Translations under genes and position numbers: made by a program
Part shown: piece by piece, positions 26,049 through 32,547 of the stretch
Layout: each line of letters opens with the position of its first letter
Position numbering within the stretch: position 1 is the first letter of the stretch
NCBI GenBank assembly: GCA_045863295.1
Contig: BTWA01000035.1
Span: 31,281 to 63,827, forward strand
DNA: 32,547 nt
Direction: 5' to 3'
From: Candidatus Hydrogenedentota bacterium
GTDB taxonomy: Bacteria > Hydrogenedentota > Hydrogenedentia > Hydrogenedentales > SLHB01
The notes under the pieces: model-generated
Seen by the model: only the letters and a program-made list of their open reading frames with translations
Told to the model about the DNA's origin: nothing
Database searches by the model: none

Positions 26049-26992
26049 CGCGCCTCAGGCTGCGTCCGCGCGCCACATAGTGCATTGGCGGTCATGCCGC
26101 CGGGCAACTCGTTCTGTGTAAACCCAAAGGGCTGGACCATCGCGAGGTGCTCGTCCGAACCGAGAAAGGAAGCAAGTTCGCTGTTTACCGCATCGCGCAG
26201 CGCGGAATCCGCCAGACGAAAGCCAAATGCGCCATACCCACGTACCGATTGTCCCTCAATTACAGGGTCCGTAAAGGGGTCCGCCTGTTCCAGGGCGTCA
26301 TTATTCGATTTCTCGAGCAAGTCGCGCACCGTCAAGCTTGTTCCGGCATAGGCGTCTACGCGATCGCTCAGCACGCCTGCAATTGCGCTGGGCGCGTCGG
26401 GAAAGACGACCAGGCGGCTTTGCGGCACACCGCATGCCAGTGCGTAGCTTCGTTCGACCGCCCCGGCCACGACCGCCAAGCGAGCGGACGGATGTTTCGC
26501 CACGTCCTCGTAGCTGTGTAGCGCCAACGGATTATCCTTCTTCACGACAAAGGCCTCGCCGATTGCGTAGGTCGGGTCCGAAAATGCAATCTGCTCGCAC
26601 CGCTCGGGCGTGATGTACATGCCAGCCGCGATAACGTCGAACCGCCCCGCCTTCAAGCCGGGAATCAATGATCCAAACTCCGTGAGGACGCCTTCTATCT
26701 CGCTTACACCCAGACGGGCCATGACCGTTTTGAGGACTTCGGGCGCTTCTCCCGTCAGATCTCCCGAGGCCGATTCGACGTATGCGAAAGGTGCTTCGTT
26801 TGCGAAGCCAATGCGCACGCGCCGTTCGCTCTGAATGCGTTGCAGCGTATCGCCACCCAGGCCGGTTGCGTCGCTGTCTGGAGCGCAAGCAAGACCGTTG
26901 CACAAGCAGACCGCAACTACAACCGGGATCGCCGCCCTTGCGCGAATCGTGATTTTCCAATTCAAGCGTGCTTTGATGTGTGGCCACCTCAC
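26045..26992 (-). CDS. ehuB: Ectoine/hydroxyectoine ABC transporter substrate-binding protein, possible lipoprotein
   Basis: GFANEAPFAY, LTGEAPE, TEFGSLIPGL, AAGMYITPERC and YGAFGFR motifs; GLA^C lipobox-like sequence. Confidence 0.9.
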   Translation of the reverse strand: MRWPHIKARLNWKITIRARAAIPVVVAVCLCNGLACAPDSDATGLGGDTLQRIQSERRVRIGFANEAPFAYVESASGDLTGEAPEVLKTVMARLGVSEIEGVLTEFGSLIPGLKAGRFDVIAAGMYITPERCEQIAFSDPTYAIGEAFVVKKDNPLALHSYEDVAKHPSARLAVVAGAVERSYALACGVPQSRLVVFPDAPSAIAGVLSDRVDAYAGTSLTVRDLLEKSNNDALEQADPFTDPVIEGQSVRGYGAFGFRLADSALRDAVNSELASFLGSDEHLAMVQPFGFTQNELPGGMTANALCGARTQPEAR

Positions 26993-27915
26993 GCCGGCTG
27001 CATCGCGGCCACGGACGGCTTCACATCCATTGGAGCAATGGGCGTGAAGTCGCGGCTGGCAATAAACTCAGGCCGCTGGGATTTGGCTGCAAATGGTTTA
27101 CCCAGCGCGTTCGACACGCTGTTGTATACAAAGAACACGTTACTTCGAGGATACGGCGAGATATTGCTGTTGGATCCGTGCATCAGATTGCATTCGAACA
27201 AAAGCACCGAACCGGGACCGCCCTTGGGTGCAACGATGCCGCCCTGGTCTACAAGTGCCCGCAGGCTGGAGGGATCCGGCACACCGTATTCCTGGCGCTT
27301 TAGGGACTGCTTATAGTGGTTCTCGGGTGTTGCACCGCCACAGGAAACAAACGTTTTGTGACTGCCGGGGACTACCATAAGCGGACCGTTGAACTCGTTG
27401 TTTTCGGTGAGCGCGATTGAACAACTAACCGCCCGCATACGCGGCATACCGTCTTCGGCATGCCAGGTTTCAAAATCGGAATGCCAATAGAACTCCTTAC
27501 CCGCAAAGCCGGGTTTCAAGTTGACACGGCTCTGGTGAATGTAGACATGGTCATTCAACAGTTGCCGTACGATGTCTACCAGGCGGGGATTTCGCGACAA
27601 GGCGAAGAAGATGAGGCTTGACCGTGTTACGTCGAATATCGACCGGACTTCCCCGCTATTGGGTTCAGTGATGGAGTATTCGGCCTTCTTTACTTCCCTG
27701 GACTGCCGAAGCGATTCCAATTCGGCCTTCACTGTCTGTACTTCTTCGTGCCCAAAAAAGTTTTCGAAGAACAGATAGCCGTACCGATCGTAGGCAGTCA
27801 ACTGTGCGCGCGACAGGGGTCCGGCCGTGCTGCCCAGTCCCGAGTGGACAACAGGGTCTTTGCGGTCGGTCATGGCAAACGCGTCCGATTGGCGCGTCGG
27901 ATACAAGTCTTTCAT
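26989..27915 (-). CDS. ectD: Ectoine hydroxylase
   Basis: EctD signature FYWHSDFETWHAEDGMP, plus HQSRVNLKPGF and MHGSNSNISPYPRSN. Confidence 0.96.
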   Translation of the reverse strand: MKDLYPTRQSDAFAMTDRKDPVVHSGLGSTAGPLSRAQLTAYDRYGYLFFENFFGHEEVQTVKAELESLRQSREVKKAEYSITEPNSGEVRSIFDVTRSSLIFFALSRNPRLVDIVRQLLNDHVYIHQSRVNLKPGFAGKEFYWHSDFETWHAEDGMPRMRAVSCSIALTENNEFNGPLMVVPGSHKTFVSCGGATPENHYKQSLKRQEYGVPDPSSLRALVDQGGIVAPKGGPGSVLLFECNLMHGSNSNISPYPRSNVFFVYNSVSNALGKPFAAKSQRPEFIASRDFTPIAPMDVKPSVAAMQPA

Positions 27916-27938
27916 ATTGCTTCTCCCTTAGAGGCGAT

Positions 27939-28370
27939 TCACTCGCCTACGGCGGCGCGGCCCTGGGCGGAATGAGTTTGAAGTTCCTGCACGATCAGAG
28001 GATAGGCGCCGTCGGAATCGTGCACCTCCTGGCCTGTACAGGGCGGATTGAAAACACATATCATCCGTAGATTGGTCTTGGCTCGTAGTAGATGATTGTC
28101 GTGGTTGTTCAGGGCGTAAACAGTCCCGGGAACGATTGTGTGGGTCTCGCCGGTGGACTTGTCTTGAATCTCTCCCTCGCCTTCCACGCAATAGACAGCT
28201 TCCAAATGATTTTTGTACCACATGTGCGTCTCGGTGCCCGCGTACAGAACGGTTTCATGAAGTGAAAACCCCATGCCGTCGCTCTGAAGCAACAACCTCC
28301 GGCTCACCCACGTCGGTGCGTGCACTTCCCGCCGGGTTCCCCGAATGTCATTAATTGTCCTGACAATCAT
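27939..28370 (-). CDS. ectC: L-ectoine synthase
   Basis: [31 protein letters not shown] and CVFNPP.TG.EVHD..GAY. Confidence 0.97.
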
Positions 28371-28373
28371 GAA

Positions 28374-29693
28374 TCAAGCTCCCACCGCGGTTTTTTCCAG
28401 CGCAATCTGAATTCGTGACGCGCGTTCCATAGCCGACTCGATGAGGTCGAGACCGCGGGAAAGCGTCTCATCGTCAATGAGCAGGGACGGCAGCAATTTC
28501 AGCACTTCGCTTCTTGAGCCTGAAGTTTCAATGATGAGACCAGCCTCAAACGCGAGACGACTGACAGTGGCCGCGAGTTCGGGTTTCTTGAAGACCAGCC
28601 CCTGGATCAGACCCCGCCCCCGCACGCGATCGCACATGCCCGGAAACTGATTGCACATCGATTCCAGGCGAATACGCATGCGCTCTCCAGCAGCGACAAC
28701 GCGATTGGACAATCTATCGTCACGCCAGTACATTTCTATCGCCTTCGTGGCGGTTACAAATGCGAGATTGTTTCCACGAAACGTCCCATTGTGTTCGGAG
28801 GGTTTCCAGCGGTCCAATTCCGGCCTCATCAGGACGATGGCCATGGGAAGTCCGAATGCACTGATTGATTTCGAAAGCGTGATGATGTCGGGGCTGATTC
28901 CAGCCGGTTCAAAGCTGAAAAATGTGCCTGTGCGCCCGCACCCCACCTGGATGTCGTCTACGATGAGCAAGATGCCGTATTGGGTGCAGATGCGCTCAAG
29001 CCGCTTGAGCCATTTGAATCCGGCGACGTTGACTCCTCCTTCGCCTTGTACGGTCTCCACAATGGCCGCGGCGGGCAGGTCGAGCCCGCTGCTTCGATCC
29101 TGAATTGCCTTTTCAAAGTAGTCCAGCGTGTCGAGTCCCGATCCCAAGTATCCATCGTAAGGCATGAATACAGTGTTTTGCAGGGGCACGCCGGCCGCGT
29201 TCCGGAAGTGGCTGTTGCCGGTGGCCGCGAGTGACCCAAGGGAAACCCCGTGGAAGCCGTTCGTAAACGATACGATTGCCGTGCGACCGGTCACTTTGCG
29301 CGCGAGTTTGAATGCAGCTTCCACGGCATTTGTGCCCGTGGGTCCGGTAAACTGAATCTTGTAGTCGAACTCACGCGGCTTAAGTATGATCTCTCGAAAC
29401 GATTCCAGAAACGCGCGTTTGGCTGTACTCGCCATGTCTAGACCATGTACCAAACCGTCATGATCGAGGTATCGCACAATGCTGGATTTTAAGTGCGGAT
29501 TGTTGTGACCGTAATTCAACGATCCCGCTCCCGAGAGAAAGTCAATGTAGGCCCTTCCGGTTTCGTCGTACAGCAGGGCTCCTTGCGCATTTGCAAACAC
29601 TTTGGGAAACGAACGGGAGTAACCGCGCACTTCGGATTCAAGCCGTTCAAAGGGTTTCATGGCGCCAGGCCTACCCTGTTGTTCATTGGACAT
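28374..29693 (-). CDS. ectB: Diaminobutyrate--2-oxoglutarate transaminase
   Basis: FERLESEVRGY, GAGSLNYGHN, GPTGTNAVE, DDIQVGCGRTG, LSKS and EHNGTFRGNN. Alternative start is ATG 29660 (ATGA overlap with the ectA stop). Confidence 0.96.
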   Translation of the reverse strand: MSNEQQGRPGAMKPFERLESEVRGYSRSFPKVFANAQGALLYDETGRAYIDFLSGAGSLNYGHNNPHLKSSIVRYLDHDGLVHGLDMASTAKRAFLESFREIILKPREFDYKIQFTGPTGTNAVEAAFKLARKVTGRTAIVSFTNGFHGVSLGSLAATGNSHFRNAAGVPLQNTVFMPYDGYLGSGLDTLDYFEKAIQDRSSGLDLPAAAIVETVQGEGGVNVAGFKWLKRLERICTQYGILLIVDDIQVGCGRTGTFFSFEPAGISPDIITLSKSISAFGLPMAIVLMRPELDRWKPSEHNGTFRGNNLAFVTATKAIEMYWRDDRLSNRVVAAGERMRIRLESMCNQFPGMCDRVRGRGLIQGLVFKKPELAATVSRLAFEAGLIIETSGSRSEVLKLLPSLLIDDETLSRGLDLIESAMERASRIQIALEKTAVGA

Positions 29694-30274
29694 GCAGGCA
29701 ACTCCTGTTTGTGTGACGCTCCATTGTCCGAGCGGCCGCTGGTCATTTCAGACGCAGGCAACGGTCCGATGCGCAACAGAATCTCGTCATCATGTTTGTC
29801 GGAACCAAACGATTCACCGGGATAGAGAACGCGCTCAACACACGAAACGTTCAGCTTGCGGGCAAACCCTTGGAACAACCTTCGCGAGACATCATTGTTC
29901 TTACCCACCGTTGCCTCGAGAAATGCGGGGGGGTGGGTTGCCGCCCGATCAAGCAGATGGGTAATCATCGCATGTGCAATTCCTATTCCCCGGCTTCGCT
30001 TCGTTACGGCGATTTGCCAGATGAACAAGCACTCAGGCCGCGTCGGCGGCCGGTATGCGGTTACCATGCCGACCATTTCCCGGGCGTCTTCCGCAATTGC
30101 GCACGTCTCCGAGAAGTGATCGCAAAGCAGGTGGTATGCATAGCACGTATTCCGCTCTAGAGGCGGATTCGCGCACACGAACGTCCACATGCGGTTTGCG
30201 TCATCAAGCGCGGGTTTTCGGATTGCCACGCCGTTCCGCAATGCTTTCACTGGCTCTGCAATTTCTGTTGTCAC
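29657..30274 (-). CDS. ectA: L-2,4-diaminobutyrate acetyltransferase
   Basis: PPLERNTCYAY.LLCDHF.ETC, LFIWQIAV...RG.GIA, EATV..NN..S..LF and HDDE.L.RIGP; lies directly upstream of ectB. Confidence 0.92.
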   Translation of the reverse strand: MTTEIAEPVKALRNGVAIRKPALDDANRMWTFVCANPPLERNTCYAYHLLCDHFSETCAIAEDAREMVGMVTAYRPPTRPECLFIWQIAVTKRSRGIGIAHAMITHLLDRAATHPPAFLEATVGKNNDVSRRLFQGFARKLNVSCVERVLYPGESFGSDKHDDEILLRIGPLPASEMTSGRSDNGASHKQELPACPMNNRVGLAP

Positions 30275-30414
30275 TTCGAGGAGGACGCTTTCTTATCCGA
30301 TTGCGGGATACTGAGCGCTTTCTTGCACTGTGGGCACTTTCCTGTCTTACCAGCAAACTCGCCGGCGGCTTGGAGTTGGGTGTCGCAGTGGGGGCATTTA
30401 AAACGAATGGCCAT
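30271..30414 (-). CDS. 47-aa zinc-ribbon microprotein (not in the ORF track)
   Basis: MAIRFKCPHCDTQLQAAGEFAGKTGKCPQCKKALSIPQSDKKASSSK*; AAGGAG RBS 9 nt before the ATG; stop overlaps the ectA start (GTGA). Confidence 0.8.
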   Translation of the reverse strand: MAIRFKCPHCDTQLQAAGEFAGKTGKCPQCKKALSIPQSDKKASSSK

Positions 30415-30554
30415 GGGTTCATTCTCCTTGACGTTGTTCACCACTCTGCCGGTGTACAGGGGATTGAAAAGCGTAACTGTAGATGAGTCTTGTTTTTCGA
30501 CTCACCAGTTCGGTTGAATTCCATATCCCGTTGCACCCGCCACATGGCAGTAAA

Positions 30555-30571
30555 GGCAAAACCCGTGCCAA
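30555..30571 (-). promoter_or_regulatory. Sigma-54 (RpoN) -24/-12 promoter of the ect-ehu operon
   Basis: Minus strand TTGGCACGGGTTTTGCC matches YTGGCACGRNNNTTGC with exact GG-N10-GC spacing; about 140 nt before the first ATG and in the correct orientation. Confidence 0.8.
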
Positions 30572-30678
30572 GATGTTGATGAGGCGGCCAAACACGTTGG
30601 ATTGCAGGCGTTTGGGACAGGTGGCCACTCCTATCCGTCTTCACAAGTCCAAGTTCGGATTCGCGGACAATCGGTCTG

Positions 30679-30697
30679 GCGTGCACATTGTGCACGC
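30679..30697. promoter_or_regulatory. Perfect palindrome, candidate enhancer-binding-protein site
   Basis: GCGTGCACA-T-TGTGCACGC (9-bp arms), about 110-125 bp upstream of the -24 element. Confidence 0.5.
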
Positions 30698-30979
30698 TTC
30701 ACGCGGTAGATACTTGCTAGATGTGCACTTCAGGCACACGAGTTTGGTTTCATCCCAATCCCTTGCAAAAACAACGGCTGCCAATTGTGCCCTTGAATAG
30801 AGAGAAGCCATGGCATGGCGCCGTGGCGCGGTATGCGCAACCGTGCACGGAGCGTGCAGATGTTGCACATGAAAAGGCTAAACGCGACCTAAAGAGCGCG
30901 CTGGTTGCGATGTGAAGGCGCGTTTCGGTACACTATTGCCGGTGTAAGGTCTCATCTTCACTCGGTCAGGCTGAATTTC

Positions 30980-31375
30980 GTGCGTCCGTATCCCGCATAT
31001 AAGCGTTTGGCTATTGCCCTCGCAAGCTTTATTGTCTTGGCGAGTGCGCGGAGTCTTGTCCCGGGTCTTTGCGCGACTCAGGCCGCTTTCGACGCGCGTT
31101 GCGAGGCGGACCAGAGCCCGAAGGCGCACTCGTGTTGCAGCGCCTTGCCTTCGAGTTCAGGCACGGGTGGACCTGCCGTTGCCCCGTTGGTGGACGTTCC
31201 TGACATTGCTTGCGCATTCTGCGCCATCGCCAAGAGCCGCGTGGTCGGTTCGTACACTCTGGATGCCGCCCCGCAAGGCCTGCCACAATACACTTGGGCT
31301 GCGTGGCCTGCCACAGCGGTCTATTCTGCTTCACCTTCCTCTTCCAATGCTGTCCGCGCGCCCCCTATTGCCTAA
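30980..31375 (+). CDS. DUF2946/CruR-like protein (signal/TM, CC, CxxC, C-terminal RAPP)
   Basis: Hydrophobic N-terminus (KRLAIALASFIVLA), HSCC, CAFC and terminal VRAPPIA*. Start is uncertain (GTG 30980 vs TTG 30905). Confidence 0.72.
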   Translation: MRPYPAYKRLAIALASFIVLASARSLVPGLCATQAAFDARCEADQSPKAHSCCSALPSSSGTGGPAVAPLVDVPDIACAFCAIAKSRVVGSYTLDAAPQGLPQYTWAAWPATAVYSASPSSSNAVRAPPIA

Positions 31376-31581
31376 CGATTCCCCCATACAGTTCGATTAC
31401 CACGATTACGCGTAGGGCGTATACACGCTTTTACGTGATGCGCTGGATCATGACTATCCGCGCACAACGCTCGCGATTCGTCGCTCAAGCAGCGGAATTG
31501 CGGGATTCAAGGAATTGAAACAGGTTAGGTAAATCAGCGCCATCCGATCTGGAATGAGCGCGTGGAGGCATATTGTCAGTC

Positions 31582-32460
31582 ATGAAAAGACAAGGTTTCA
31601 CCCTCATCGAATTGCTCGTTGTAATTGCCATAATCGGCATTTTGGCAGCCATTTTGTTGCCCGCCCTCGCCCGGGCGCGCGAAGCGGCACGGCGGGCCAG
31701 CTGTCAAAACAACCTCAAACAGTTGGGTCTCTCATTCAAGATGTATGCAAATGAGTCCAACAAGCAAGTCTTTCCGTCGATTCAAGTATTCAATTGCGAA
31801 GGAGACATTACCGCGTTGAACATGATTTTCGATGGCGGCCACATGTTTCCGGAATACCTGAGCGATTGGGAAGTGGTGGTATGTCCCAGCAACGCATACA
31901 CGGATTCCGCGGTTGAGATGTGGGACGAAGGAAAGACGCCCTCATCGCACTGGCATCATTCGCCGTTGTCGGACAACGGGCGCGTCGATCCATGTGAATT
32001 AACGGACCACCCTTACTTCTACTTCGGATGGGCCATATCGGAGAACACGCTTTCCACCCAGGCCGACTTTACGGATCTGGAACATGAGTTGCCGATATTG
32101 CGCAATGCCATCATGATGAACCCGGACAAGGTAAATCAGGATTGGGATTTGGACCACCATACATTTGACGGCTACGAGAAGGTGTTTCGTCTGAAGGAAG
32201 GCGTGGAACGCTTCTTCGTGACCAACATCAACGCCGCCGCGGCGGGGTCCGTGGCGCAGTCGAATGTACCTGCCATGTGGGACATGATTGGCCGCGGGGC
32301 GACCATGTTCAATCACGTTCCTGGTGGGTGCAATGTGCTGTACATGGATGGCCACGTTTCCTTCGAGCGCTATTCCGGTACGGAAGGCAACGGGTATCCG
32401 GTGAACGGCGCGGGACTGGTGATGATGTCGGCCGCGATGGGCATGGGCGGACATCACTAA
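31582..32460 (+). CDS. DUF1559 family prepilin-type protein with H-X9-DG C-terminal motif
   Basis: KRQG^[45 protein letters not shown] and [16 protein letters not shown]. Start is ATG 31582 or TTG 31573. Confidence 0.92.
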
Positions 32461-32547
32461 GAAGCAGCGATCGGTCCGGCCGGGGGGCGCGCCGGCGGGG
32501 GGGGGGCGGGGGCCGGGGAGAGATGTGTGAGGTGAGAGCGGTGGGTT

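Follow-up and report, generated by a model that had tools for sequence, protein, structure and literature searches.

Among the described systems closest to the locus treated here is CruR of Bordetella pertussis. The family to which it belongs, DUF2946 (PF11162), has been defined by a CxxC motif, an RAPP motif, and a spacing between the two that lies within one or two residues of 45; in CruR itself 45 residues intervene and RAPP stands three residues from the end (PMC9426467). More than 95% of the family are reported to carry an N-terminal export signal. CruR arrests translation in vitro, with two proline codons in the P and A sites, and RAPP is also the motif of ApdA and ApdP, peptides that monitor protein localisation (PMC12992588). 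Another DUF2946 member is CutF, for which it has been proposed that copper-induced stalling melts a stem-loop shielding the next ribosome-binding site (RBS) (10.1101/2025.02.05.636593, 10.1101/2022.11.11.516240). The DNA examined here, which is referred to as the window, is a stretch of 32,547 nucleotides (nt) from a Candidatus Hydrogenedentota bacterium (assembly GCA_045863295.1, contig BTWA01000035.1, positions 31,281 to 63,827), in which an open reading frame (ORF) with a CruR-like layout precedes a gene for a prepilin-type protein with a DUF1559 domain.

It is rather probable that these two genes (30980-32460) form a cassette in which a cis-acting, metal-sensing arrest leader of the CruR lineage regulates a DUF1559 pseudopilin with a Met/His tail. 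The computed grounds for this reading are the homology of the leader, the fixed spacing of its motifs, the recurrence of the pairing, its restriction to pilins with Met/His tails, and an excess of complementarity between the arrest site and the RBS of the next gene. The leader has the following parts.

30980..31375, + strand: leader ORF of 131 amino acids (aa), GTG start, alternative TTG at 30905, TAA stop at 31373-31375; a divergent CruR/DUF2946-like arrest-peptide candidate
31007..31048, + strand: hydrophobic N-terminal segment LAIALASFIVLASA, residues 10-23, from the translation and conserved in a 16-row alignment of relatives (A3)
31055..31081, + strand: LVPGLCATQ motif with invariant Cys31, from alignments A1, A2 and A3 of relatives
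31127..31138, + strand: HSCC, residues 50-53, holding the invariant Cys52-Cys53 pair, from the alignment of relatives
31211..31222, + strand: CAFC, residues 78-81, the invariant CxxC and candidate metal-binding motif, from translation and alignment
31355..31366, + strand: RAPP, residues 126-129 of 131, codons CGC GCG CCC CCT, followed by Ile-Ala-stop

Translation confirmed every coordinate of the layout claimed in the initial annotation, namely a hydrophobic N-terminus, read there as an export or transmembrane segment, HSCC, CAFC and, 44 residues after the second Cys of CAFC, an RAPP motif two codons before the stop. Five cysteines are present in all. The LAIALASFIVLASA segment is preceded by Lys-Arg and ends in the Ala-x-Ala-like ASA, and by inspection it is probably an export signal. 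With the CruR toeprint as the guide (PMC12992588), the codon expected in the P site at arrest is 31361-31363. The arrangement exceeds what chance would give, because the genome has 55,104 stop-to-stop ORFs that are 60 aa or longer, and a mere five of them show the pattern of CxxC followed after 41-46 residues by R[AGSD]PP and, no more than 10 residues on, by a stop; three of these five sit directly upstream of DUF1559 genes. Nor is the junction between the two genes an assembly artefact, since contigs from two further public metagenome runs span 31259-31572 and 31298-31561 with zero differences to the window; the aligned public metagenome DNA contigs contain no informative variation within the leader.

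The placement of the leader in the CruR lineage follows from profile searches together with its motif architecture. A word-indexed homology search returned a single relative, with 38% identity and with LVPGLCATQAA, H-x-CC, A-C-x-x-C-A and the ending RAPPI in common, and a profile of the leader and this relative, run against 1.84 billion representatives, gathered 87 proteins at E <= 1e-3. In all 87, the residues R24, P28, C31, C52, C53, C78, C81 and P129 are invariant, and R126 and P128 are at least 90% conserved. Matches to PF11162 at E <= 0.01 were obtained for 23 of the 87, and seven of the 15 nearest relatives gave collinear, full-length PF11162 alignments below threshold. Within the window's genome, the paralogous leader at locus L006 reaches 24.8 bits and thus passes the PF11162 gathering score of 23.7 bits, while that at locus L007 reaches 20.2 bits. 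Motifs were counted on 88 proteins, that is, the 87 profile matches and P0002: R[AGS]PP occurs in 66, with a gap from CxxC of exactly 44 residues in 55 of them and of 43-45 in 64, and the remaining 22 have RDPP in all except P0050. Both RDPP and RSPP are reported to be partly arrest-permissive in ApdA and ApdP (PMC12992588). Across the relatives, R[AGSD]PP lies 1-8 residues from the C-terminus.

Held against the definition of the family, the window leader has the invariant CxxC, RAPP near the C-terminus, and a spacing of 44 where 45 plus or minus one or two is the rule; it stays below the gathering score. It is also the first gene of its operon, as family members ahead of copper-homeostasis genes are, but its only conserved partner is the DUF1559 prepilin gene, of no known copper-homeostasis family. 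Our conclusion from the sequence is that the ORF belongs to the CruR lineage, as a divergent member below the Pfam threshold and with extra conserved cysteines. The kinship with CruR and DUF2946 that had been claimed for it is thus sustained by the 87-member profile, by the 23 PF11162 matches in it and by the spacing, but not by a direct search of the ORF against PF11162.

The recurrence on which the initial annotation had made its reading depend was borne out. A whole-genome PF11162 scan does not recover the window leader ORF, but it led to two further leaders on contig 21, each directly before a DUF1559 prepilin gene, so that three pairs occur in this one genome. With the 87-row leader profile, matches were obtained in 22 of the 61 genomes that share the window's family and order and in 51 of 135 across the phylum, and a scan of species-representative genomes with the 16-row alignment found 16 loci, mostly in Candidatus Hydrogenedentota records. 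Over the loci from 22 related genomes and the 16 Hydrogenedentota-type records, 41 distinct leader-pilin junctions were counted. The leader is adjacent to the pilin gene in 37 of them, with a spacer of 41-256 nt (148 nt at locus L014, and a short 41-100 nt in many), and in the other four it is the first of two leaders in tandem. The only leaders after which no pilin gene can be seen (L028, L047, L053) stand at contig ends; every locus with enough downstream DNA has one, and all 30 of the 30 proteins encoded downstream of leaders match both N_methyl and DUF1559. Five near-complete genomes that were negative with the leader profile were searched with a pilin profile instead, which gave one match far above the rest in each. 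Four of these five top orthologues have a CxxC...R[AG]PP leader and the fifth (L059) has none, as against no leader before any of the 21 other DUF1559 genes examined in the same genomes, and the prevalence of the leader in the phylum is therefore underestimated. The coupling of leader and pilin is strong, though not absolute.

The tandem arrangements consist of two CruR-like leaders about 50-150 nt apart before a single DUF1559 gene (L015/L039, L018/L051, L044, L052), and may represent either a double switch or recent duplications. At L022/L037 (G032 contig 8, 69647-70049) the N- and C-terminal parts of the leader match the profile in two different frames, which suggests a frameshift or an assembly error.

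The second gene of the window's cassette, and the part of it that may bind metal, are located as follows.

31582..32460, + strand: prepilin-type DUF1559 / H-X9-DG gene, 292 aa, starting 206 nt past the leader, from Pfam, NCBIfam and an AlphaFold2 model
32398..32457, + strand: Met/His-rich C-terminal tail, candidate metal-binding, from composition and alignment, with low model confidence at the end

A same-strand DUF1559 prepilin gene had been announced about 200 nt downstream of the leader, and its identity is now secured by Pfam matches to N_methyl (PF07963, 2.7e-9, 36.7 bits) and DUF1559/SBP_bac_10 (PF07596, 1.4e-12, 48.7 bits) and by NCBIfam matches to TIGR02532 (36.1 bits) and the H-X9-DG model TIGR04294 (25.3 bits, cut-off 19). 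The protein therefore carries the prepilin methylation motif, the DUF1559 domain and the C-terminal H-X9-DG motif. Its AlphaFold2 model (mean predicted local distance difference test score 86) has a 51-residue N-terminal helix and a tail that ends at low confidence. A Foldseek search of this model against the PDB gave no match at E <= 0.001, with alignment confined to the N-terminal helix, and a profile search of PDB sequences likewise matched that helix alone and no solved DUF1559 head domain. The 21 best VIA-align rows comprise 20 pilins or pseudopilins and one chain of a GspK-GspI-GspJ complex, all at weak scores (Z <= 4.9). The description of the protein as rich in His and Met also stands, with 12 His and 15 Met among its 292 residues and six of the last 20 residues being one or the other.

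What sets the linked pilins apart is their descent and their tails. The window's genome has 22 H-x-DG DUF1559 genes, three of them with a leader. When these paralogs were placed together with the linked pilins of relatives in a quick maximum-likelihood search, with three proteins entered twice, 21 rows (18 distinct proteins), all leader-linked, formed one clade with a Shimodaira-Hasegawa-like approximate likelihood ratio support of 98, and four other linked pilins fell outside it. Members of the main clade share a C-terminal extension, FP-x-N-x-x-G-[LF]-x-x-H-x3-H, followed by Gly/His/Met-rich ends, and one subclade has additional Met-rich inserts. At least three His and Met in the last 20 residues are seen in 24 of 30 linked pilins, as compared with none of 19 unlinked paralogs, a control drawn entirely from the window's genome. 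Leader-linked pilins are thus mainly one clade, specifically the pilins with His/Met-rich tails, although not without exception. The number of DUF1559 genes differs greatly even between genomes within one family, five relatives having 12, 15, 32, 38 and 99 matches per genome (at least 150 in total).

A conserved set of genes after the pilin was also considered as part of the system, and was rejected: the eight downstream ORFs examined share no family pattern, and include a rhamnosidase, a GTPase resembling elongation factor G, an aminoimidazole ribonucleotide (AIR) carboxylase, a glucose-6-phosphate dehydrogenase, another DUF1559 protein, a 3-keto-disaccharide hydrolase and one protein without a family.

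The manner in which leader and pilin might be coupled is suggested by the RNA between and across them, in which four features can be named.

31330..31407, + strand: C-rich, G-poor stretch, a candidate resembling a Rho utilization (rut) site, with 31 C and 10 G among 78 nt, spanning the arrest site and the first part of the spacer
31347..31359, + strand: predicted 5' strand of a helix that pairs with the pilin RBS, overlapping the Arg and Ala codons of RAPP
31376..31581, + strand: leader-pilin spacer, 206 nt, from the sequence, a promoter and terminator scan, folding and Rfam
31560..31571, + strand: predicted 3' strand of the helix, holding the pilin Shine-Dalgarno sequence GGAGG at 31564-31568

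A promoter of the pilin gene's own, which had been raised as a possible objection, was not seen: the spacer showed no sigma-70-like promoter and no + strand intrinsic terminator, in a scan for sigma-70-type sites that carries little weight for this phylum. Rfam gave no match at E <= 1 over 30200-32547. The duplex predicted between 31347-31359 and 31560-31571 has an energy of -19.0 kcal/mol, and a ribosome arrested with 31361-31363 as its P-site codon would cover the 5' strand. In a comparison of 37 loci, the mean duplex energy between the arrest window and the RBS is -14.7 kcal/mol for true pairs and -12.2 kcal/mol for mismatched pairs, and none of 20,000 permutations was as low, although the compared loci are related and the p-values are overstated for that reason. 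At any context length, pairing of the RBS with the arrest window reaches P >= 0.5 in 16-19 of the 37 loci. The codons of the arrest motif are in keeping with this pairing. Its first Pro codon is CCU in 15 of the 37, against a background use of 11.4%, and for this reason CCUCC occurs in 15 of 37 arrest motifs, compared with two of 29 Pro-Pro pairs inside pilin genes. This enrichment points to stalling proline codons that double as the strand hiding the RBS of the next gene, a compact design in which the site of arrest would also be the element of concealment. In the same 37 loci the excess of C over G peaks about 20 nt before the leader stop, that is, at the arrest site, where C-richness is partly imposed by the Arg, Ala and Pro codons.

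In the mechanism that these features suggest, a ribosome translating the leader would come to a halt at RAPP, its P site occupied by the first Pro codon. CxxC would then lie about 47-50 residues from the peptidyl-transferase centre, just beyond the exit tunnel, and Cys31 and Cys52-53 would already be exposed or exported. The stalled ribosome would cover both the C-rich end of the leader and the helix strand that would otherwise be paired with the pilin Shine-Dalgarno sequence. The RBS-masking helix and the rut-like stretch together thus lead to the prediction that stalling turns the pilin on, transcription and translation of its gene both being permitted. If the analogy with CruR holds, copper bound to the nascent cysteines would release the arrest and turn the pilin off, and the pilin would be made under copper scarcity, its Met/His tail capturing copper in the envelope. 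What we infer in this scheme is that the ribosome arrests at all, that copper is the signal, and which way the regulation runs. Copper is the best guess, favoured because of the homology to CruR and CutF, the set of cysteines and the Met/His tails, and His-only tails would also suit nickel or zinc. Of the two kinds of logic known from the family, that of CruR, where copper releases the arrest and the target is turned off, fits the motif set best, with that of CutF as the alternative. The interpretation offered in the initial annotation is in this way supported by computation, with arrest and metal response argued by analogy.

A number of observations weigh against the cassette as a metal switch. 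The window leader has no PF11162 match even at E <= 10, and no NCBIfam match. No copper genes are found beside the leader-pilin cassettes, the genes past the pilin being unrelated and different between loci, and DUF1559 is not among the known copper-homeostasis families. Six of the 30 linked pilins have no His/Met tail, among them that of the genome's third pair (L007). Nor is the coupling absolute: an orthologue of the linked clade with the His-rich tail HEAGHGHIGHDHHH (L059, 1477-2592, - strand) has no upstream leader, from which it follows that the coupling can be lost, and a fourth CruR-like leader in the window's genome heads an ABC-2 transporter operon and not a pilin gene. Further points concern the RNA. 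The whole spacer folds no better than shuffled sequence (z = -1.47, with 13 of 200 shuffles as good), and the window helix is dependent on context, with P = 0.86, 0.17 and 0.35 at 36, 120 and 240 nt of upstream sequence. When more upstream sequence is included, the window RBS prefers a partner near 31200-31216, and it stays paired when the footprint of the stalled ribosome is forced open. About half of the 37 loci do not have the arrest-site pairing. Finally, the logic described for CutF is opposite to that of CruR, in that copper induces stalling (10.1101/2025.02.05.636593), so that the regulation here may have either sign.

At L059, a divergent Hsp20-like gene takes the place of the leader upstream of the pilin gene. 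The fourth leader (contig 21, 76013-76432, - strand, equivalent to L055:6514-6933, - strand) is 139 aa long, with a stretch rich in His, then CGLC and, after a gap of 44 residues, RGPP-LPA-stop; it has no Pfam match. Behind it are genes for a 271-aa protein without a family, an ATP-binding cassette (ABC) ATPase, an ABC-2 permease and a tetratricopeptide repeat protein, and the end of this operon immediately precedes the genome's third leader-pilin pair, so that the whole stretch of contig 21 may be one metal-related island. The fifth ORF of the genome that matches the pattern looks spurious.

The strongest competing explanation adopts the CutF-CutO logic: excess copper, sensed by the exported cysteines, would induce or prolong stalling and unmask the pilin RBS, and the Met/His-tailed pilin would serve as a copper sponge for detoxification, in the periplasm or at the surface. 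This is consistent with the RBS-masking helix predicted in about half of the loci and with the many spacers of 41-100 nt, and it recalls the stem-loop melted by copper-induced stalling on CutF. Sponges of this kind, induced by copper or silver, exist among Met/His-rich proteins of the periplasm, PcoE and SilE being examples. The motif set here, however, is that of CruR (CxxC, 44-45 residues, RAPP) and not that of CutF (CxxxC, PPP). Moreover, RAPP and RGPP are reported to arrest robustly alone and to resist elongation factor P (EF-P) (PMC12992588), which fits an arrest by default that is released by a ligand, and we regard the detoxification scenario as rather unlikely.

A different possibility is that the leader monitors export or oxidative folding, with arrest released by the pulling force of Sec or by disulfides among the five cysteines, so that the pilin would be tuned to the capacity of the envelope. 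RAPP peptides of the ApdA and ApdP kind provide a precedent, as do the upstream ORFs with RAPP or RGPP and conserved Cys pairs that precede DsbA and thioredoxin genes (PMC12992588); the leader has an N-terminal hydrophobic segment, and the pilin has its own four conserved Cys. Yet all 22 DUF1559 paralogs need export, most with the same Cys pattern, and no more than three have a leader, which tracks the His/Met-tailed clade. The fixed 44-residue spacing from CxxC is a signature of CruR, whose signal peptide is described as dispensable for regulation (PMC9426467), and export or folding as the signal is accordingly a distinctly improbable explanation. Least of all does the evidence favour an exported Cys-rich protein in its own right, such as a metallochaperone or a partner of the pilin, that is merely co-transcribed and whose RAPP has no regulatory role: 131 aa is long for a leader, and its N-terminal half (RxLVPGLCATQ, CC) is conserved more strongly than anything known of arrest would demand, but RxPP is among the tetrapeptides most avoided by bacteria (PMC12992588) and is nevertheless near-invariant in this family, 1-8 residues from the end and at a fixed distance to CxxC, and CruR itself was never observed as a protein and is presumed to undergo degradation (PMC9426467), all of which makes this a very improbable account.

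With the metal-sensing cassette retained as the preferred reading, one may ask what the pilins do. Per genome, the DUF1559/H-X9-DG prepilins here number in the tens; they have no assigned function and are rarely mentioned in the literature searched; a CruR-type leader before the one clade with tails resembling metal ligands gives rise to the testable hypothesis of a metal-regulated, metal-binding pseudopilin. A more far-reaching proposal, which we put forward tentatively and consider possible at best, is that the Met/His-tailed members capture copper as subunits of a type IV filament or pseudopilus, and that their synthesis is under the control of a nascent-chain sensor of copper, the arrest codons of which also serve as the anti-Shine-Dalgarno strand for the pilin gene. 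If this were true, it would amount to filament-based copper acquisition or buffering in lineages where TonB-dependent receptors are few, that is, in the Hydrogenedentota and probably the Planctomycetota, and to a first function for a protein family that ranks among the largest uncharacterised ones in these phyla.

The genomic setting bears on this proposal to a limited extent. The genome encodes three heme-copper oxidase subunits I, one prepilin peptidase and seven secretins, and no Plug or TonB-receptor barrel domains were detected in it at 96% completeness. Plug domains occur in 26 of 94 genomes of the phylum that are at least 90% complete, so that TonB-dependent receptors are scarce, not absent, in the phylum. 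The idea that the pilin substitutes for such receptors gains little from this context: the window's genome has none of them, but several of the Plug-bearing genomes also carry the leader.

The contig ends 87 nt past the pilin gene. A G-rich low-complexity run occupies 32470-32547, on which public metagenome contigs pile up to a summed depth of about 3,400, and it is probably because of this run that the assembly stops just beyond the pilin gene. On the other side of the cassette, at 26989-30274 on the - strand, an ectoine-type cluster (a GNAT acetyltransferase, a class-III aminotransferase, an ectoine synthase and a PhyH-family dioxygenase) runs in the direction away from the leader and is unrelated to the leader-pilin finding; a 57-aa zinc-ribbon-like ORF lies next to it at 30271-30444.

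The pairing had been thought undescribed in the initial annotation, which holds in part. Fujiwara et al. 2025 (EMBO J, PMC12992588) list 'DUF1559 domain-containing protein' in their source data as a class enriched downstream of RAPP ORFs (112 RAPP against 68 AAPP, 6.46-fold, adjusted p 1.05e-31), and among the rows are leaders that show this subfamily's ...GRAFVPGLCATQ... motif as well as His-rich CxxC-RAPP leaders from other genomes. Neither 'DUF1559' nor 'pilin' occurs in the main text of that paper. The pairing of RAPP leader and DUF1559 gene is thus already visible in published survey data and was not studied there: so far as that source was covered, it is counted, without analysis of the spacing, the pilin clade, the tails or the RNA pairing. 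In the parts of Roy et al. 2022 (PMC9426467) that were available, a few homologues of CruR in the Planctomycetes are reported and neither DUF1559 nor pilins are mentioned; the text and three supplements examined of Ozturk et al. 2023 likewise contain no mention of them. A full-text literature search returned no paper naming both DUF1559 and copper.

Of the systems described to date, ApdA and ApdP (Sakiyama 2021; Morici 2024) share with the window leader a C-terminal RAPP in a small ORF upstream of a presumed regulated gene. As described, they monitor genes of the Sec pathway and have no CxxC at a fixed distance, whereas the window leader precedes a DUF1559 prepilin gene and not a sec or yidC gene. 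CutF-cutO of Rhodobacter capsulatus resembles it in having a Cys-containing leader, exported in CutF and probably so here, with a proline-based stall site at the C-terminus, and the proposed opening of a structure that hides the next RBS is comparable to the helix predicted here. CutF differs in its CxxxC, its PPP, its dependence on EF-P, its copper-induced stalling and its target, a multicopper oxidase; the window leader has CxxC and RAPP in place of the two CutF motifs.

The likeness to CruR (Bp2923)-bfrG of B. pertussis goes further (PMC9426467). Both have a small ORF, exported in CruR and probably so here, as the first gene of an operon, with an invariant CxxC, 44 intervening residues here and 45 in CruR, an RAPP motif two residues from the end here and three in CruR, and a long spacer of 206 nt here and 162 nt in CruR. 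The C-rich, G-poor 3' end of the window leader lies where CruR has its rut site, and profile searches tie the leader to members of PF11162. The window leader differs in scoring below the Pfam threshold, in its extra invariant Cys31, Cys52-53 and RxLVPGLCATQ, and in the RBS-masking helix that is predicted in many of the present loci and absent from the CruR model as described. Above all the target is a DUF1559 prepilin in place of a TonB-dependent transporter with PepSY_TM, by which the targets of RAPP arrest leaders would be widened beyond transporters and chaperones.

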